Below are positions 31,980 through 41,900 of a DNA stretch of 64,000 nt, in pieces. The notes under the pieces are model-generated. The model ran no database searches. It saw only the letters and a program-made list of their open reading frames with translations, and was not told the origin of the DNA. The stretch spans positions 2,688,001-2,752,000 of the forward strand of contig CAXXLX010000001.1 in assembly GCA_963665235.2 (NCBI GenBank), read 5' to 3'. The position numbers were made by a program, and so were the translations under genes. The stretch is from Candidatus Poribacteria bacterium (GTDB lineage Bacteria; Poribacteria; WGA-4E; WGA-3G). Numbering within the stretch: position 1 is the first letter of the stretch; each line of letters begins with the position of its first letter.

Positions 31980-32585
31980 ATGGCATATAGCGATTTTACC
32001 TTGGAAATGGTGCAGAAAACGTTCCAATTAGAGACGGTTCGGTCTATAGGAATTTTCTCTGAAATAGAACCGGTGGCTCCGAGCGCGTATCTCAAGACGG
32101 GGTTAGAGAAAAAGGCATCGTTAGCCACCGCCATTGGCACCGAGAAAGCGCGTTCCGAGCTGATTGTCGCTGATATACTCGTTGAACTTCTTGAGCACTT
32201 CGAACGCCGCATCAGTCTCTTCTCTGGGATTGACTTCAACGTTGATGCTGAAGCGGGTTTAACCGGGGTGTGCGATTTTTTAGTCAGCTTGTCGCCAGAA
32301 CAATTTTATTTGGAGGCACCTGTTATCGTGCTTGTCGAAGCAAAAAATCTCGATCTAAAACTTGGAATCGGGCAGTGTGTCGCGGAGATGCTCGCTGCCC
32401 AACGTTTTAATGCCGAAAAAGGGAATGACGTTTCCTGTGTTTATGGTGCCTCCACGACTGGCGTAGACTGGCTCTTCCTCAAATTGGAGGGGCGGTGTTT
32501 GCACATTGATATGACAATCTACACGATTGAGCGGTGTGACAGAATCCTCGGTATCCTCGCCAGCATGGTGGAGCAGGAGGCGTGA
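31980..32585 (+). CDS. Conserved PD-(D/E)xK-like hypothetical protein (HsdR-N-like)
   Basis: EKARSE.I, G.CDF, LVEAK, GQCVAEM, YG..TTG..W.FLKL. Confidence 0.7.
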   Translation: MAYSDFTLEMVQKTFQLETVRSIGIFSEIEPVAPSAYLKTGLEKKASLATAIGTEKARSELIVADILVELLEHFERRISLFSGIDFNVDAEAGLTGVCDFLVSLSPEQFYLEAPVIVLVEAKNLDLKLGIGQCVAEMLAAQRFNAEKGNDVSCVYGASTTGVDWLFLKLEGRCLHIDMTIYTIERCDRILGILASMVEQEA

Positions 32586-33820: not shown

Positions 33821-33928
33821 ACTGAAAGTGAGGCTGAGTTGAGTAAAAGCTTCTGGCGTATTAGAGTTCAGTATACAGGGAGCATCGCATCAAACTGAAA
33901 GCGGTTTTGAGGAAGTAAAAATTGATGT
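33821..33928 (+). repeat. Left copy of an imperfect ~107-bp direct repeat (right copy 41608-41714)
   Basis: actgaaagtga.gctgag...ttagagttc.gtat.caggga.cat.gcatcaaactgaaagcgg.tttgagga.gta.aaattgatgt is shared by both copies. Confidence 0.85.
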
Positions 33929-33983: not shown

Positions 33984-34778
33984 ATGGCAAAGAAAAAGAC
34001 GAACACACCACGCAAAAGAAAACGCTTAAAGGCAAATGCCAAGCGTCAAGCACATGCTCAGCTAAGAGGATACCTCTACCAAATCTGGCATAGTGTGAAC
34101 GCTTGGTTGGACCTTGCCGAAGATGAAGTCCTCTATTTGGAAGGTGCGGAAGACTTTGACAGAGTATCAGATGACGATGCTACGGCGACACAGGTCAAAC
34201 ACACACAACACAACATTACGCTTAGATGTCAAGATGTGAATGATGCAATCAACCACTATTGGGAGCTGCGGACTAACAATCCTGATCGACGTGTGAAATT
34301 CCGCTTTCTCACAACATCTAAGATAGTTAAGGAACAAGGTAATTCACTTGGAACGGATAAACCGGGTCTTGAAGTATGGAGTCGTTGTTCAGGTGATGAG
34401 ACAGCTATCGTAAAAATTTCTGAGTTTTTACAAACTGAGGGGAAAATATCAGAAGAAGTAAACGATTTTCTCAAAACCGCGGAACCGCAAGAAATTTATG
34501 CACAACTCATTGAACCAATTGCTTGGGAAACGGACAGCAAGCCTGCCGGTTTCGTTGAGCAATCTATAAGGGAAAAATTGATTCATCATGGCGATCGGCA
34601 CGGTATTTCACCTTCCAATGCTGAAAAAGTTGTTGATTACCTTCTCAAGGAAGCATTGACGGTCGCAACACATAAGGAAAACCGTCGACTTACCCGAATA
34701 CGTTTTCTGGAAATTTTCGAGGAATCAAACAAGCGAGTAGTTTCAATCCAGGATGTTGCGGGCACAGCAATCCATTGA
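33984..34778 (+). CDS. Cap4/DUF4297-like PD-(D/E)xK nuclease domain; probably the 5' part of a split gene
   Basis: LRGYLYQ...W...LYLEGAEDFD...TQVK restriction-like motif. Confidence 0.7.
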   Translation: MAKKKTNTPRKRKRLKANAKRQAHAQLRGYLYQIWHSVNAWLDLAEDEVLYLEGAEDFDRVSDDDATATQVKHTQHNITLRCQDVNDAINHYWELRTNNPDRRVKFRFLTTSKIVKEQGNSLGTDKPGLEVWSRCSGDETAIVKISEFLQTEGKISEEVNDFLKTAEPQEIYAQLIEPIAWETDSKPAGFVEQSIREKLIHHGDRHGISPSNAEKVVDYLLKEALTVATHKENRRLTRIRFLEIFEESNKRVVSIQDVAGTAIH

Positions 34779-34792
34779 CTCAATAAAAGCTG

Positions 34793-37700
34793 TTGTTGGA
34801 TCACGGGAAAATTGCCGGGGATTCATCTGATATTAACATTCAATCTCATCCTCACATACAAACCGATATACCTCCAATCTATCTTGATGTTGTTATTCCG
34901 AGGACAGAACTACTCACAGATATCCAAACTAAGCTCCAATCTGATAGTATAGTCGTAATTCAAGGAGGCGTGGACACAGGCAAAACAACCCTTGCAAAAT
35001 TGACCGCAAATGCTATAGATGCTGATTGGTTTTGGTTAAATTTGACGAAAAAGGATCCGTCTCAGGTTGCCCAGCTTTTACAGCAACTTGCTAGTGCAGT
35101 AAGCAATGAATCTTCACAAATCAATGTTGTCCTTGATGATCTGAATTTACAACCGCAACAGTTGAGGACGTATAAAGAAGAATTGGGTGTTGTGGTTTAT
35201 AGGGTGCTGGAACGTGGTGCGAAATTGTTAATCACAAGTCAGTATAATCCACCTAATAACCTTATTCGCAGTCTCGGTTTATCGTCGTCGGTGGTCGTCA
35301 ATGCTCCTAACTTTATTAGATCTGAAATCGCGCAGTTTGCACAGCAACTAAGGTGCCCCGCTGATGATTTAGAGACTTGGGTAACATTTATTCAAGCACA
35401 TACGAGCGGACATCCAAGGCTTGTACATGCCCGACTCACTCAATTACGAGACGAGGGATGGAAGCAATCAGATTTAATCGAAAGTATGATACAAACACCC
35501 CAGGTAGTAAAGAAAGAACGTGAAGCGGCACGACAACTACTCATCGACTTGCCAGAAGATAGAAGGGAATTTCTTTATAGGCTTAGCCTGCTTACTGAAT
35601 TCAGGCAAGATTACGCGCTTAACATTGGTGAAATACCAAACCCTATATCTTACCCAGGGGATGTTTTTAGTCAGCTGGTCGGACCATGGATAGACCAAGT
35701 TAGTGAAAACTACTACACAATTTCACCTTTATTGACAAACGCAGCCAAAGAGGTTTGGTCCGATGATAAGATAAAAGGTCTTCATGCTTATATTGCAAAT
35801 GCTATCCTTGAAACGAAGAAACTGACCACAACGGAAGCTCGGGCTGTGCTTACACATAGTATAGTTGGAGAAAATAAAGAAGGACTTGTTTCTGTCATTC
35901 AGATGCTAATGACGGCTCCAGAGGATAGCTGGGGTATGCTCAGTCAAGAGTTCGCTTGGTTGAGATACATTAAAATTGATCCTCATGAGGAACTATTTCC
36001 TGGGAATGTCTTTGTAAATCAACTGTTTCGGTCATTGCAGTATCGAATTGCGGTTGAGGTGGAACCGGAGTTTGCACCAAAGATACTTGAAATCTGGGAT
36101 AAGGAAACTAAACCTTATGAACCACGTCACTTGTATTTGTTATCTCGTCTAATACTGGCCACAGAGGTATTGAGATTCAACCAAGTTTCACTCCCAGCCA
36201 AGAAGGTGGTGGGTTATCTTAAAGAAATGATTGACATCAAAGATAGGGAAAAAGAGGCCTGGGAGATTTTCTACAATTCTATGGTGCAATTAGAAGCAGG
36301 TAAAACCGATAAGTCCAACTTTTTCAGTATCCTATTTAGTTTTATCTATGCGCGTCAATCCATTTACGCTCCGTTTCTTAGTGACCTTATTGATGAACTG
36401 GATGAACTTAATCCAAGAATTCTGACACTATTATTGGCTGATTTTGAGGGTGACAATATTATTGAGGCGAGGTTGTTAATTGACGGTGTCTGGTGGGCGG
36501 AAGCAAATCTTGAAAGCCCAAATTGGACAAGGTGCCTTCAGGTATTTGACAGAGTAATTGAGAAAACTATCGAATGGGGTTATCCCAACATCGCTGCAGC
36601 ATCCGCAAGAGGCAAAGCCATCATTCATGACGAATACCTGAATGCCCCTGACACTGCTCATGAAGTCCTTCAAGATATTACATCAAAATTGGGTCCACTA
36701 CCAGCAATAGAAGAAGCGCGGGCATTCGTGTATTTACACCAAAAAAATTACAAAGAAGCCCTCAATATTTACGAGTGTATTCTTCCTAAGTGGAACCCAC
36801 CTTTAGAACAATTGGGCATTGGTCCTTTGGAGGAGTATCGCAGAGCCGCTATATGCGCAGCCTGTTTGGACGATTGGAAGAAAGCAGCTGCCTTTTTCGA
36901 AGATGGCGCAAAAAGAACTCATGAAACTGTGAACGTAGAAGGGTACGTTGGTTTTTATGCAGATGCCGGATTTGCCCACTTTAAAGCAGGCAATATGTTG
37001 AACTGCATAAAATTTCTGCATCTGGCGTTGCAAAATTTTGAAATGCTTCCTCAAGACAATACAGATGTCAAGTATTTCACTTTAAAGAAACGTTTAGAGC
37101 ACATCATAAAATGGATAAAGACGATATGGTATGAGTGGGAAGATAACGCTTCAGAACTTTTTGAACCCTTTGTAGGTTTTTGTAGCGATGCGGAGACAAA
37201 AGAGGAATTTTTGACGCTTCCTGATTGCCCAATAGGATACCCTTGGTTCTATCTATCGCAAATTGAATACAGATTTGGGCATGAAACGACAGTTTTCCAA
37301 CATGCTTTGCAGATCACAGACCGGGATGCATATCCAGAACTAAACTTCCTCCTTTCTGTACTTGAAACACAATATGACTTTAAAAATAAAACCTTTGACA
37401 ATCTACCACGGCGTATACATCAATTGATGAATGTGTGTGATTTGATGCAGGAGCATTATCAAAGTATGGAAAAAAATGAGAGAAAAGAAATTGGTTCTTT
37501 ATCTATTGCCAATCTATCCAATCTCGCTTCTGTTGAGAACATTACTACTTTTTTTGTATCTGCCCTTCTTACACAACTGTCAACAAATCGAGATGTTCAT
37601 GAAACTCTAACTATATGGCGGACAAATTCATTAGGATTACCTATAAAAGATAATATGGCCATTGCTCTTAACCTAATTGAATCGATATTGTTCGGAGACC

Positions 37701-38284
37701 AAAATGATGCCTTAACACTGATGAAAACGCAAGAAAGCAAATATGAAGAGCGACTTGTAGCAGCATTAAAGGTTGTTCAGGATAAAAAAACGAATCCAGC
37801 AAACCTTTTTGGGGCACATACGCTCATTACGACTTTTCTGATTGACTATCTAACATGGCTAGACCCCCTCGGGCAAGGTTTAGCAGGGCTGCTTTCTGCA
37901 CAGTGGCTTGAAAAAATAAAATTTCGCGCAGCACTGAAAGCACCTATGCTGACAGTGCCTGAAATAGAACAGGCCTGCAGCAGCAGTGAAACCGGCAAGA
38001 AGAAAATCGGGCGGATTCTACTTGCTGCGCATCAAGCTGTCTCACTTAGGGTGCCCTCTGAGACTTTACAGAAATTCCGGACTTGGGCAGAATTGGAATC
38101 AGAGCAGAAACAGGAACCCACAACAGGAAAAAATTCCGCTGCACAAAACCTCATCAAAGTGATGGAAAAGCCGCCACATCTTACTGATGAAGATATTACT
38201 GCACTACATCAATCAATCGAAGAGGGGAAAATACCTATAAATTTCAATTCGCCCTTTGAACCGGATGAGCACGAAAAAGAATGA
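34793..38284 (+). CDS. STAND-like P-loop NTPase with long helical/TPR sensor region (Avs-like) and antitoxin-like tail
   Basis: Walker A GGVDTGKTT, Walker B VVLDD, LLITS, SGHP.L, long helical-repeat region. Confidence 0.75.
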   Translation: MLDHGKIAGDSSDINIQSHPHIQTDIPPIYLDVVIPRTELLTDIQTKLQSDSIVVIQGGVDTGKTTLAKLTANAIDADWFWLNLTKKDPSQVAQLLQQLASAVSNESSQINVVLDDLNLQPQQLRTYKEELGVVVYRVLERGAKLLITSQYNPPNNLIRSLGLSSSVVVNAPNFIRSEIAQFAQQLRCPADDLETWVTFIQAHTSGHPRLVHARLTQLRDEGWKQSDLIESMIQTPQVVKKEREAARQLLIDLPEDRREFLYRLSLLTEFRQDYALNIGEIPNPISYPGDVFSQLVGPWIDQVSENYYTISPLLTNAAKEVWSDDKIKGLHAYIANAILETKKLTTTEARAVLTHSIVGENKEGLVSVIQMLMTAPEDSWGMLSQEFAWLRYIKIDPHEELFPGNVFVNQLFRSLQYRIAVEVEPEFAPKILEIWDKETKPYEPRHLYLLSRLILATEVLRFNQVSLPAKKVVGYLKEMIDIKDREKEAWEIFYNSMVQLEAGKTDKSNFFSILFSFIYARQSIYAPFLSDLIDELDELNPRILTLLLADFEGDNIIEARLLIDGVWWAEANLESPNWTRCLQVFDRVIEKTIEWGYPNIAAASARGKAIIHDEYLNAPDTAHEVLQDITSKLGPLPAIEEARAFVYLHQKNYKEALNIYECILPKWNPPLEQLGIGPLEEYRRAAICAACLDDWKKAAAFFEDGAKRTHETVNVEGYVGFYADAGFAHFKAGNMLNCIKFLHLALQNFEMLPQDNTDVKYFTLKKRLEHIIKWIKTIWYEWEDNASELFEPFVGFCSDAETKEEFLTLPDCPIGYPWFYLSQIEYRFGHETTVFQHALQITDRDAYPELNFLLSVLETQYDFKNKTFDNLPRRIHQLMNVCDLMQEHYQSMEKNERKEIGSLSIANLSNLASVENITTFFVSALLTQLSTNRDVHETLTIWRTNSLGLPIKDNMAIALNLIESILFGDQNDALTLMKTQESKYEERLVAALKVVQDKKTNPANLFGAHTLITTFLIDYLTWLDPLGQGLAGLLSAQWLEKIKFRAALKAPMLTVPEIEQACSSSETGKKKIGRILLAAHQAVSLRVPSETLQKFRTWAELESEQKQEPTTGKNSAAQNLIKVMEKPPHLTDEDITALHQSIEEGKIPINFNSPFEPDEHEKE

Positions 38285-38697
38285 ATAAATATCTCCTGGA
38301 AACAACAACGTGGAGTCTGTTAATGAAAGATAACCCCAAGGTTAAAGGGCGTTTGAATTCGCTAACCCAGTCGGACTACTATTTTACTTGTCCCATTGTT
38401 AAGGGCGAAATTCTGTTCGGAATAGCTCGGCTCCCTGCTGGAAAAAGAAAACAAGATCTCCAACAAAAGGCAAACGAGTTATTCGCTATAATTCCGTGCG
38501 ACCCGATCCTAGAAAATGTTGGTGATGTCTATGCCCAGATAAAAGTTACGGCGCAACAACAAGGCACCCCTTTAGATGAATCCGATCTTTGGATTGCCGC
38601 GACGGCTCTTGCGCTTGATGCGATTCTGGTTACGTCTGATTCCGATTATCAGAGAATTGCTAGAGTAGGATTGCGTTTGGAAGATTGGAAAAATTAA
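38281..38697 (+). CDS. vapC: PIN-domain ribonuclease toxin (VapC-like)
   Basis: YLLETT..., GEILFG, DESDLWIAATA, LVTSDSDY; ATGA overlap with the upstream stop. Confidence 0.85.
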   Translation: MNKYLLETTTWSLLMKDNPKVKGRLNSLTQSDYYFTCPIVKGEILFGIARLPAGKRKQDLQQKANELFAIIPCDPILENVGDVYAQIKVTAQQQGTPLDESDLWIAATALALDAILVTSDSDYQRIARVGLRLEDWKN

Positions 38698-38890
38698 CAA
38701 AAGAGATATTTCACGTCAATAAATCTGAAAAATTGCTTGCCAGTCGATGCGGATTTATGCTAAACTTTATGAAGGAATTCTTCAGAAGTCTCTCCCCCCT
38801 TGAGTGAGATTGTGCAGACAGTTTCACAGCAAACTTTGAGCGAACCTGATTCAAAAAAATCGCGGCAAAGTTGAAGGAGAATTGGTAACC

Positions 38891-41056
38891 ATGAACACCA
38901 GTATGACATATAAGATTAGACCCGCGGGGCGACACCTCCTCACCATCGGCCGTGATCTCATTCAGGATAATTACGCCGCTGTTTTTGAGTTAGTAAAAAA
39001 CGCTTACGATGCCGATTCCCCTGACGTGCATATAGAATTCAGAGCGGCTCCTGACCATAGTGGATACACTATCGTCATTTCCGACCACGGGCACGGTATG
39101 TCCAGCGATGATGTTATTAACAAGTGGCTTGTGCCATCAACACAGGATAAGGTTAAAAGGCATCGCAGTCCATCTGGACGCGTGTTACAAGGCAGTAAAG
39201 GCGTGGGACGTTATGCTGCATCCATTCTCGGCACAGATCTGCTCCTTGAAACAATCACCAATAAAGGTGAGAAAACAACCGCCTATCTTAAATGGGGCGA
39301 CTTTGAATCTGCGCTGTACCTGGAGGATGTGGAGATACCGTTGAAAACAGAAGTAGTCTCTGAAGCCTCAGGTACACGGTTGACTATTAACGGCGGAAGC
39401 GAAATGCTCGCTGAATGGGACCAAAAGCAGTTTGACAAACTCCGGTTTGAATTGAAGAAACTCACATCACCTATAATGGATGTGTTCAGCCATGAAGGGA
39501 CAAGTGATGTGTTCCGTATCAGTTTGGCAGTTAGCGAATTTCCCGCAGTGAACGACATCAGCGAAACTATTGAACCCTATCCACTTTTCAATCTTTTTGA
39601 CTACAAGATAGCGGGTAAAATCAACAGCGACGGTACAGGGACGCTAGTCTATTCGTCGCAGAAAGCTCGCAACACAATAGAAGAGAAGATTCCATTCGAT
39701 TTTGGACATCCTACTGGCTGCGGGGAACTTGATATTGATATCCGTGTTTACGATCGGGAGGCAGCGGCGATTGATGCTCTTATCAAGCGGGGGTTTACAG
39801 ATGAATTCGGAAAATATGTTCAGAAACTTGAGGCGAGACAAATTCTGAATGCAAGCAACGGTATTGGCGTTTATCGAAACGGATTCCGGATCCGACCGCT
39901 CGGAGACCCCGATTTTGATTGGCTGAAACTCAATGCCCGAAGAGTGCAGAACCCAACACGTTGTATCGGCAGCAACCAAACAATCGGGTATGTACAGATT
40001 CAATCCGAGGTGCAGTCCCGCTTGATTGAAAAAAGTGCCAGAGATGGACTTAAGGAAAATGCGGCTTTTAATCAACTCAAAGAGATCACAACGCGGGTTA
40101 TAACAGAACTTGAATGGCGACGTTTCAACTACAGAAAGAGCGCGGGGTTGAGCCGGCCCGCTTTCAAAGTGGAAAGCAATCTGCAAAATCTTTTCTCCTT
40201 TGATGAGCTCAAGCAAGACATAGAAATGGAACTGACAAAGGCTGCTGTTGACAGAAAAACAGCTGATAAAATTATTGAACGCATTGATGAGGATGCTGAG
40301 GATAAAAACAAGATAGCGGGGGAAATACGCCAAACGGTTGCAATTTATCAGGGACAAGCTACCTTAGGGAAAATCATCAACGTCATTCTTCATGAAGCTA
40401 GACGGCCCCTCAGCTACTTCCGGAATCGAGTCCCTTATCTTAAGCGGAGATACAACTCATTTCAGAAAAACGGAGATCCGGCTGAGCTCGAAAAAGCCAT
40501 GGAAATTATTGATGGAATCGCTGAGAATTCCCAATTCTTTGTGAACCTCTTTAAAAGACTTGATCCGCTAGCAGCACGGAAGCGGACTGCAAAGAAGCCG
40601 TTGGAGTTAAAAAAAATAGTAGAAGGTATAATTGCTATCTTCGAAAACGAACTGAAATCTCATAATATCTCTCTTAGAATCAGCGGGCCTGATGACTTCA
40701 GATTCTTGGCTTGGCAGCAGGACATTTATGCAATTTTTACAAATCTTATTGACAATAGTCTCTACTGGATTAGTGAAAAGAAGCCCGAAACACGAGAAAT
40801 CACGATTGAAATCCTGACGAATGCGAATTCCCTGATTCATATTGACTATCACGATACCGGACCCGGAATTGAACCCTCTCTCATTGAGAGTGAAGTGATT
40901 TTTGAGCCTCACTTTTCCACTAAACCGGATGGAACAGGGTTGGGGCTCACAATAGCTGGGGAAGCTGCAGAACGAAACCAACTTGAACTAAAAGTTTATG
41001 AATCTGAAGAAGGTGCCCATTTTATACTTCAGCCCAAAACGGAGAATGAAAAATGA
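38891..41056 (+). CDS. MORC/HSP90-type GHKL ATPase fused to a histidine kinase
   Basis: ELVKNAYDADS, DHGHGM, GSKGVGR, YRNGFRI.P.G...DWL.L; H-box ILHEARRPL, NLIDNSLYW, DTGPGI, GTGLGL. Confidence 0.88.
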   Translation: MNTSMTYKIRPAGRHLLTIGRDLIQDNYAAVFELVKNAYDADSPDVHIEFRAAPDHSGYTIVISDHGHGMSSDDVINKWLVPSTQDKVKRHRSPSGRVLQGSKGVGRYAASILGTDLLLETITNKGEKTTAYLKWGDFESALYLEDVEIPLKTEVVSEASGTRLTINGGSEMLAEWDQKQFDKLRFELKKLTSPIMDVFSHEGTSDVFRISLAVSEFPAVNDISETIEPYPLFNLFDYKIAGKINSDGTGTLVYSSQKARNTIEEKIPFDFGHPTGCGELDIDIRVYDREAAAIDALIKRGFTDEFGKYVQKLEARQILNASNGIGVYRNGFRIRPLGDPDFDWLKLNARRVQNPTRCIGSNQTIGYVQIQSEVQSRLIEKSARDGLKENAAFNQLKEITTRVITELEWRRFNYRKSAGLSRPAFKVESNLQNLFSFDELKQDIEMELTKAAVDRKTADKIIERIDEDAEDKNKIAGEIRQTVAIYQGQATLGKIINVILHEARRPLSYFRNRVPYLKRRYNSFQKNGDPAELEKAMEIIDGIAENSQFFVNLFKRLDPLAARKRTAKKPLELKKIVEGIIAIFENELKSHNISLRISGPDDFRFLAWQQDIYAIFTNLIDNSLYWISEKKPETREITIEILTNANSLIHIDYHDTGPGIEPSLIESEVIFEPHFSTKPDGTGLGLTIAGEAAERNQLELKVYESEEGAHFILQPKTENEK

Positions 41057-41718
41057 GTGTAATGAGAGTTCTGCTTGTTGAAGACGCAAAAGATCAGCAG
41101 CTCATCTTTGAAGATGTCGTAGGTGTTTTCAATGAAGAGTATGATTTAACCGTTGAATCTGACATCGCAGAAGACACTTCAAGCGCATTGGAAAAAATAA
41201 ATAGTTCTTACTATGGTGCAATCATTGACATGAAGTTAGGTAACGATTATGAAGGTGGAAATGAGGTGGTCCGCCGGCTTCACGATTTATCTATTCGTGT
41301 GCCGGTCATCTTTGTCACAGGCTACCTTGATTTGGTGGAGGACCACCCATTGATTATCAAGAAACGGAGCCGCGACGCGGATACTTACGAATCTGATCTT
41401 TTATCGTTTCAGAAGTGGCACAGCGCGAAAGAGACCCCACAAACCTACACCGCGCTTATCCGACAGAGCGAGGAATGGTGGCTCGGGTGGATAGTAGAAG
41501 TCCGGGGGGTTATCTGTCAAGAACGAACGAGAAGTGAATTGTTAGATACGCTGCAAATCACACTTCGTGAAATATTAGAATATGAAACGCCGGAAGTCGC
41601 GCTCCGGACTGAAAGTGAAGCTGAGGCTTTAAAAGCATCTGACATCTTAGAGTTCGGTATGCAGGGAACATTGCATCAAACTGAAAGCGGATTTGAGGAG
41701 GTAGAAATTGATGTATGA
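41053..41718 (+). CDS. Receiver (REC) domain fused to a HicB-like antitoxin domain
   Basis: VLLVED...IIDMKL...PVIFVTG, then YTALIRQSEEWWLGWIVEVRGVICQERTRSELLDTL. Confidence 0.8.
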   Translation: MSVMRVLLVEDAKDQQLIFEDVVGVFNEEYDLTVESDIAEDTSSALEKINSSYYGAIIDMKLGNDYEGGNEVVRRLHDLSIRVPVIFVTGYLDLVEDHPLIIKKRSRDADTYESDLLSFQKWHSAKETPQTYTALIRQSEEWWLGWIVEVRGVICQERTRSELLDTLQITLREILEYETPEVALRTESEAEALKASDILEFGMQGTLHQTESGFEEVEIDV

Positions 41719-41900
41719 AACGTAGGAAGTTGATTAAACATCTTAGAGACCACGGATGCGTGCTTCTTCGGGAAGGTGGAAGACACTCGATATGGCGGAA
41801 TTCAGAACAGCGCACCCAAGCCTCGGTCCCGCGACACACCGAGATTAATAATATTACCGCCCAGAAAATCTGTAAGGAATTAAAAATCCTACGTCCGTAA
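41715..41900 (+). CDS. hicA: HicA-family toxin
   Basis: MKRRKLIKHLRDHGCVLLREGGRHSIW...VPRHTEI...KICKEL. Confidence 0.92.
   Translation: MKRRKLIKHLRDHGCVLLREGGRHSIWRNSEQRTQASVPRHTEINNITAQKICKELKILRP

Follow-up and report, generated by a model that had tools for sequence, protein, structure and literature searches.

Two described signalling systems stand closest to the locus presented here. In the available text of Bellieny-Rabelo et al. [quoted passage not shown] The anti-phage system Detocs, as far as the available part of its preprint goes (Rousset et al., bioRxiv 10.1101/2023.01.24.525353), comprises a kinase with tetratricopeptide repeats (TPRs; DtcA), a stand-alone receiver proposed to act as a phosphate buffer (DtcB) and a receiver fused to a toxic effector (DtcC), the kinase histidine and the receiver aspartate both being needed for defence. 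The locus under study belongs to Candidatus Poribacteria bacterium (GCA_963665235.2, contig CAXXLX010000001.1) and lies at positions 38891..41900 of a stretch of 64,000 nucleotides (nt) that was analysed as a whole (2,688,001-2,752,000, forward strand; hereafter the window). It encodes a histidine kinase, a HicB-fold antitoxin module with a receiver (REC) domain joined to its N-terminus, and a HicA toxin. Two known kinds of system, a restriction-derived two-component kinase and a HicAB pair, are combined in it: the effector domain of a response regulator has been replaced through recombination by a HicB domain predicted to bind HicA, with hicA following. Each component is of a known kind, and the fusions found so far all come from a single phylum of sponge symbionts; open-access papers and preprints yielded no description of a REC-HicB antitoxin fusion, nor of a paraMORC-kinase operon with a toxin-antitoxin output.

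The three genes are on the + strand, with open reading frames at 38882/38891-41056 (724/721 amino acids, aa), 41053-41718 (221 aa) and 41715-41900 (61 aa). As the initial annotation had it, they overlap in ATGA stop/start junctions, read at 41053-41056 and 41715-41718, and they are translationally coupled. The kinase start codon (ATG, 38891) has a GGAG sequence 10 nt 5′ of it. All three proteins are intact and possess their catalytic residues, these being His501, Asp59 and His24. The features are given below; feature coordinates are window positions throughout, and the labels L, G and P stand for loci compared, genomes searched whole and protein-search matches, respectively.

38854..38890, + strand: kinase gene leader, the 37 nt that end at the ATG; from 38854 onwards blastn shows homology to L012, L013, L036 and others
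38891..41056, + strand: histidine kinase, 721 aa (Pfam, NCBIfam, motif alignment)
41053..41433, + strand: receiver domain of the fusion, residues 1-127 (Pfam PF00072 below cut-off, AlphaFold (AF2) model, Foldseek, 52-protein alignment)
41443..41715, + strand: HicB-fold module of the fusion, residues 131-221 (models, fold matches, homology to 70-aa HicB-like proteins, predicted complex)
41715..41900, + strand: hicA, 61-aa RNase-type toxin (Pfam HicA_toxin above cut-off)

Residues 6-93 of the fusion match Pfam Response_reg (PF00072) with an E-value of 1.5e-5 and 25.6 bits, below the cut-off of 30.2. Response_reg_2 (PF19192) matched neither the fusion nor the canonical 358-aa regulator of related loci, on which PF00072 was likewise the only match and below cut-off. 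With the AF2 model of the 221-aa fusion (predicted local distance difference test, pLDDT, of 78), a Foldseek search of the PDB gave 67 matches at E<=1e-3, and all those listed were receiver domains or response regulators, so that the REC identity of the N-terminus is confirmed by its predicted fold. The phospho-acceptor Asp59 is encoded at nt 41227-41229. In the 52-protein alignment the acidic pocket is highly conserved (E10 in 51, D11 in 52, D59 in 50 and T89 in 51 of the 52 proteins), as are R105 (52/52) and R107 (50/52).

The C-terminal module had been annotated as HicB-like from about 41443, a call that is borne out by fold and not by hidden Markov models (HMMs). In the model its first strand begins at residue 131 (nt 41443), the start of a beta-beta-beta-alpha unit; this core (131-177) is followed by an acidic, poorly ordered insertion (178-213), inside which lies a conserved, invariant DILEF motif, and by a closing strand (214-221). 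The acidic insertion is extra in comparison with short forms of 70 aa. Searches by sequence found little: Pfam at E<=10 on residues 121-221 gave no HicB-type match and only CutA1 at 0.033, NCBIfam found no HicB on the C-terminal part of the fusion, and PDB sequence searches (phmmer, profile) gave nothing significant, the profile matching TTHA1013 at E=2. Foldseek with the full-length model found receivers only and no HicB match. The module was also modelled alone (residues 124-221), giving a core with pLDDT >90 and disorder at module residues 58-87. When this model was compared by VIA-align with 48,161 chains, the top nine were all HicB or HicB-like, namely 6g1c (Z 9.6; 72 residues aligned, root-mean-square deviation 3.1), 3kwr (9.1), 6g1n (9.1), 4p78 (8.3), 6u0i (7.3), 5yrz (7.1), 2dsy (6.7), 2yzt (6.0) and 3k6q (5.8), and unrelated folds begin at Z 5.8. 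Foldseek with the same model listed HicB-type proteins in its first 14 rows, all of them weak (E 0.02-0.5, none <=0.001). By these fold comparisons the module has the HicB N-terminal (partial RNase H-like) fold. It carries no C-terminal ribbon-helix-helix (RHH) or helix-turn-helix (HTH) domain, as the protein ends at the closing strand and Pfam gave no match to a DNA-binding family. In long-tailed modules (residues 178-221, nt 41584-41715 in the window) there is a seeming duplication of the C-terminal strand motif, TESE.E..K followed by TESGFEEV.I.V; the two copies flank the invariant DILEF, which the model of the complex described below puts against HicA.

The module is homologous to 70-aa proteins which are widespread in the phylum and in many metagenomes, and a profile search retrieved 1989 representative clusters at E<=1e-3. 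Seven of eight short relatives match Pfam UPF0150-like only below threshold (E 0.002-0.03). Its usual forms are alone (70 aa), behind an AF2212-like domain or with a RelB-like one, each usually followed by hicA; the gene lies directly after the 70-aa HicB in 12 of 20 loci examined, and it follows the module in 11 of the 12 fusion loci (the window, L012, L013, L028-L035 and L068). To stand ahead of hicA is habitual in the family of this module. The AF2212-type antitoxins are 141 aa in length and about 80% identical to the window module. In L018 (5872-6312), P0077, P0106 and many others, an AF2212-like domain (PF01954) and the HicB module make up such a protein upstream of hicA, which places two antitoxin-type domains on one small Poribacteria protein. 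The module is also found joined to a RelB-like N-terminus (P0358), to DUF433 (P0383) and to HicA itself (P0373).

The third gene product matches Pfam HicA_toxin (PF07927) at 9.3e-11, its 42.1 bits clearing the cut-off of 27, and the earlier description of hicA as intact holds. Its His24 (codon at nt 41784-41786), which we take to be the catalytic histidine, is invariant in 20 of 20 aligned homologues. When module and HicA were modelled as a complex, the score was 0.87, whereas the best of three controls reached 0.01; the high score may reflect likeness to known structures and not independent evidence, as HicAB complexes have already been solved. Of 157 solved complexes 116 attain that mark, as do 2 of 215 mismatches. 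At least 96% of contacts are shared between runs, and the partner has a pLDDT of at least 91. The predicted interface takes in HicA residues 21-24, including His24, together with D197, E200 and F201 of the insertion, and the module is accordingly predicted to cover the catalytic histidine.

The kinase was described at the outset as a MORC-type GHKL-histidine kinase, and the domain searches agree. It is a soluble protein which combines an N-terminal HATPase_c_3 domain, that is, a paraMORC-type GHKL ATPase (residues 29-162, nt 38975-39376; 6.3e-18), with a C-terminal HATPase_c catalytic domain (residues 610-717, nt 40718-41041; 1.1e-19). Between these are a middle region of some 330 aa, which matched no family, and the DHp helix, where His501 is encoded at nt 40391-40393. 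In NCBIfam, sensor kinases of the AtoS/ZraS type (AtoS 1e-19) match the C-terminal 230 residues and BbrUII/HgiDII restriction enzymes (6.9e-14) the N-terminal 150; PADLOC likewise takes the N-terminus to be type II REase-like. This HgiDII-like ATPase suggests DNA as what the kinase senses. The GHKL motifs, with the H-box His501-Glu502 and the N, G1 and G2 boxes, are invariant in 18 of 18 aligned homologues. HEF_HK (PF19191) matched neither the whole kinase (E<=0.01) nor residues 170-600 (E<=10). The family is large, with more than 3000 relatives found. The H-box (40391-40411) reads HEARRPL in the window and HEGRQPL or HESGQPL in relatives, none of which has Thr or Asn at H+4. Thr or Asn at this position is tied to phosphatase activity in HisKA kinases and, by that rule, the window protein may be a kinase-only, one-way enzyme.

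Relatives of the kinase disclose where the fused receiver came from. The canonical system in the phylum consists of a C5 methylase, the kinase and a regulator of about 350 aa, the latter made up of REC and an uncharacterised domain of about 225 aa. All 13 canonical loci compared (L018, L036-L047) have the kinase immediately 5′ of a REC-effector regulator, which makes the output position modular. Searches of Pfam, PADLOC and the ESM Atlas with the effector domain led to unnamed clusters only; PF19192, at a low 0.76, was the nearest with a name. Seven of these loci have a full-length methylase and two a truncated one (L036, L046), and four have none. Together with the available text of PMC8011034, the canonical loci uphold the earlier statement that GHKL-kinase/receiver pairs occur in restriction-associated loci. 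In trees, the 11 fused RECs fall into a single supported clade (97/99), and this clade lies within the regulators whose genes directly follow those of the same kinase family, which argues for a single origin from a cognate regulator; by this placement the fused REC is a descendant of the kinase's cognate regulators.

Full-length REC-module proteins occur in 11 of the 176 genomes of the phylum, and one further fusion locus came from metagenomes (L068). Of 120 listed protein matches, 66 span 98% or more of the query, with identities of 56-81%. Pairwise Nei-Gojobori estimates (55 pairs) gave ratios of non-synonymous to synonymous substitution rates (dN/dS) of 0.25 in REC, 0.09 in the HicB core and 0.17 in the tail, with dS near 0.85 and with REC at 0.21 in copies linked to the kinase and 0.27 in unlinked ones. 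By its spread and these values the fusion is old and under purifying selection. The initial annotation had allowed for a chance deletion fusion, should relatives carry separate REC and hicB genes. Such relatives do exist, with REC joined to another effector and HicB in AF2212-HicB or 70-aa form, but a recent or chance deletion in this genome is ruled out by the spread and the selection just described. Longer matches in five metagenome loci (L093, L095, L115, L108, L139), which had looked like candidate REC-HicB fusions in other phyla, were rejected, being read-through upstream of an ordinary 70-aa HicB and HicA.

How the pair might be controlled can be set out as follows. The reading that we favour, with a probability of roughly 45%, is that unphosphorylated REC-HicB neutralises HicA and that phosphotransfer from the kinase loosens this hold. 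At rest, REC-HicB would bind HicA over its active site and keep it silent. On a trigger, presumably foreign or unmodified DNA sensed through the GHKL domain and the middle region, the kinase would phosphorylate Asp59; the activated receiver might then, for example by dimerising, loosen or occlude the HicB-HicA interface, and free HicA would cut RNA and arrest growth, amounting to abortive infection. That phosphorylation should weaken neutralisation follows the behaviour of canonical REC-effector proteins and of Detocs. That the unphosphorylated form must neutralise follows from genomes which have no kinase, and from a fusion with D59N (L034), all of which keep an intact hicA. A broader proposition is advanced with more reserve, namely that this is a type II antitoxin gated by two-component phosphotransfer, in which a paraMORC-type kinase frees the HicA RNase as an abortive-infection device, and in which the highly conserved HicB module would be a recombination handle for the exchange of cassettes and toxins.

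The same parts could operate with the opposite sign, phosphorylation strengthening neutralisation, or the receiver could be a phosphate sink like DtcB. For either, it may be noted that an H-box with no Thr or Asn at H+4 would fit a one-way kinase. In addition, restriction-type modules often behave as addiction systems in the available text of PMC8011034, and Detocs, as presented in the accessible part of its preprint, has a buffering receiver. However, kinase-less genomes and L034 with its D59N keep an intact hicA with His24, so that the unphosphorylated form must already neutralise, and the window operon has no second effector-bearing regulator that a sink might protect. Both versions are held to be improbable.

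Several observations weigh against kinase control of HicA. The initial annotation had proposed that receiver phosphorylation controls HicA release. The REC and HicB architecture recurs in the 11 genomes, but a kinase adjoins it in only 4 of the 12 loci (the window, L012, L013, L035); of the remaining eight, L028, L030-L034 and L068 have no adjacent kinase, and the kinase operon of L029 is divergent and decaying, with an integrase in its methylase and its own truncated regulator. Five genomes with an unlinked fusion were searched whole. No kinase homologue was found at E<=1e-20 in G172, G099, G100 and G125 (94-96% complete), and in G151 one lies 1.45 Mb away. Asp59 is replaced by Asn in two unlinked fusions, L033, which lost hicA, and L034, which keeps it. 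The conserved Lys usual after beta5 is not evident in the receiver, position 103 being R in 26, K in 20 and H in 6 proteins. The window has no copy of the methylase that normally accompanies the kinase, and its genome has no PF00145 gene. Finally, the trees are discordant. The window REC is sister to that of L012 (100/99, 87% identity), whereas the window kinase is only 70% identical to the L012 kinase and falls outside the clade of L012, L013 and L035 (100/100); the window module and HicA fall together with L013 and AF2212-type pairs (83/90), most of the remaining fusions being placed elsewhere (91/90), these last splits having moderate support from short sequences. By these trees the parts have been shuffled by recombination and need not be co-adapted. 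The claim of phosphorylation control is weakened in consequence: it is not required for the REC-HicB/HicA pair to exist, and the pair can persist as a plain toxin-antitoxin module with no kinase.

The main alternative is an ordinary type II HicAB with REC as an inherited, phosphorylation-independent appendage. REC would then be a dimerisation or stability domain replacing the AF2212-like or RelB-like domains of sister antitoxins, and the adjacent kinase a leftover of recombination or a mere neighbour in a crowded island. The unlinked and kinase-less copies and the D59N variants speak for this, as does the module's fusion to AF2212-like, RelB-like and other N-termini and its presence alone with hicA in 12 of the 20 loci examined. 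Recombination within the fusion gene, and a relic of another module gene at 33821-33928 that marks the 3′ end of the module as a recurrent junction, point the same way. Yet the REC pocket is conserved beyond the needs of a scaffold, with D11, D59 and T89 retained in nearly all proteins at a dS of about 0.8-1.0. Moreover, the end of the kinase gene overlaps the fusion gene in all four linked loci, where all genes are intact. L012, L013 and L035 keep the full series of methylase, kinase, REC-HicB and HicA, and their kinases form the 100/100 clade noted above, so that the linkage has survived speciation and is inherited, not incidental. An inert REC is a credible account, held to be somewhat less probable than control through the kinase.

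The methylase bears on whether the kinase arm still works in this genome. It is retained in three of the four linked fusion loci (L012, L013, L035), and none lies upstream of the kinase in the window. To judge by its homology, the leader at 38854..38890 is the sole leftover of the 3′ end of a C5 methylase gene, which precedes the kinase in relatives. In the whole genome (92.6% complete) there was no match to the relatives' methylase or to PF00145, a family search that found its target in 9 of 14 control genomes. With no methylase in this genome, a trigger in which unmethylated DNA is taken as foreign cannot apply as such. It might be supposed that the arm has decayed here, the methylase having been deleted and the cassette pasted behind a neighbouring STAND-PIN operon, with the kinase silent and only the toxin-antitoxin pair at work. 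The reduction of the methylase to 37 nt, with none elsewhere, would fit, as would decay in sister loci (the integrase and truncated regulator of L029, the truncated methylases of L036 and L046, the lost hicA of L033). Against this, the window kinase is full length with all motifs intact and has near-identical copies in other assemblies (P0123, 100%; P0124, 99%), and the four of 13 canonical kinase-regulator pairs that have no methylase still keep both genes intact. A decayed arm is held to be improbable, and control of HicA through the kinase stays the favoured reading.

Among the relatives of the system, L029 (6581-7534) has a tyrosine recombinase gene inside its C5 methylase and a regulator, belonging to its kinase, that is cut to 176 aa, which shows active decay or rearrangement of the canonical system beside a REC-HicB/HicA pair. 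In L036 (1878-8776), the kinase-regulator cassette with its truncated C5 methylase sits between two type III-like N6 methylase genes. Both begin with nearly the same 70 or so residues. L013, L018 and L033 have this N-terminal peptide at their downstream border, and the island may possess in it a second handle for recombination.

The surroundings of the locus also bear marks of recombination. The island, at about 32-42 kb, has a G+C content of 0.40-0.45 compared with 0.47-0.51 in its flanks, and at its left edge there is one further feature:

33821..33928, + strand: frameshifted relic, the last ~108 nt of another HicB-module gene (68% aa identity to residues 191-221, one stop)

The relic is 90% identical (blastn) to the 3′ end of the L013 fusion gene and lies just 5′ of a DUF4297-STAND-PIN operon. 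Complete modules are found at the same junction in other genomes (L021, L014), and the conserved 3′ end of the module therefore appears to be a recurrent recombination site. L014 itself is a 3.6-kb contig binned as Gammaproteobacteria, which carries the module, hicA, DUF4297 and STAND and is 70-79% identical to Poribacteria loci; its binning is probably an error rather than a sign of transfer. At 31980-32585 the window encodes a PD-(D/E)xK (Cas4-like) protein (PADLOC PD_DExK 1.9e-46), and a gene 69% identical to it lies near a HicB module in L023 and L024, which makes the island position syntenic across genomes.

The second operon, also with ATGA-type coupling, occupies 33984-38697 and codes for a DUF4297/LmuA-like protein of 264 aa (PADLOC LmuA 6e-14), a STAND-type NTPase with TPRs of 1163 aa and, as a toxin, PIN/VapC (Pfam PIN 1.9e-12). 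Stand-alone DUF4926 proteins have a C-terminal tail with which the final ~55 aa of the STAND protein share 70-80% identity, and the same tail occurs on a REC-module protein, P0020 (293 aa), as well as on the short HicB of L066 (150 aa). This portable tail may be a PIN antitoxin. The operon had been regarded as a second fusion of a signalling protein and an antitoxin in the same island; the STAND protein does carry the tail shared with DUF4926 proteins, but PIN follows it in only a few loci (the window, L021, L036), a minority. In the three-gene locus itself, PADLOC matched no defence model beyond REase_II on the kinase N-terminus and PDC-M60B on REC. Scans for promoters (21 promoter-like sites, 16.1 +/- 4.1 expected) and for terminators (6 terminator-like sites, 8.0 +/- 3.2 expected) were uninformative; a weak site (9/12) is present at 38737-38766.

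Toxin-antitoxin systems are known to be triggered in phage attack by antitoxin degradation, by transcription shut-off or by direct sensing of phage proteins. Should REC gate HicA, the locus would offer a case in which signal-gated toxin release can be tested cleanly. It would be an abortive-infection device that arose in nature when a regulator exchanged its effector domain for an antitoxin, and the poorly understood paraMORC-kinase systems would gain a readable output. If REC is inert, what is left is an unusual domain architecture from a single phylum. In addition, the locus illustrates how a defence island is rebuilt by recombination at a conserved antitoxin module.

Like the paraMORC HEF_HK system in the available text of PMC8011034, the locus has a soluble kinase with HATPase_c_3 and HATPase_c domains, a His-Glu H-box and a regulator directly downstream. 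It shares with that system a setting in a restriction/defence island and, in its relatives L012, L013, L035, L018 and six others, a C5 methylase directly upstream. However, PF19191 and PF19192 do not match the proteins here and the window has no methylase. The output also differs, being a HicB-fold antitoxin with a separate HicA, proteins of which the available text of PMC8011034 makes no mention.

The comparison with Detocs is limited to what the accessible part of the preprint describes. In both, a kinase would signal to a REC protein with a cell-killing or cell-arresting output, and the output domain can be exchanged. In Detocs the sensor carries TPRs, whereas the kinase here has a GHKL ATPase and no TPRs, and the stand-alone receiver of Detocs has no counterpart in this operon. 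In Detocs, REC is fused to a toxic domain (purine nucleoside phosphorylase (PNP), nuclease or transmembrane), whereas here it is fused to an antitoxin that would hold a separate toxin.

Like type II HicAB pairs (solved as 4p78, 6hpb, 6g26 and 5yrz), the locus has the conserved histidine of HicA, the fold of the HicB N-domain and overlapping genes, and the predicted interface covers the HicA active site. Unlike them, it has the antitoxin gene first and carries no RHH or HTH DNA-binding domain. The HicB domain is instead C-terminal to a receiver and possesses an acidic insertion with DILEF, and HicB HMMs miss the module.

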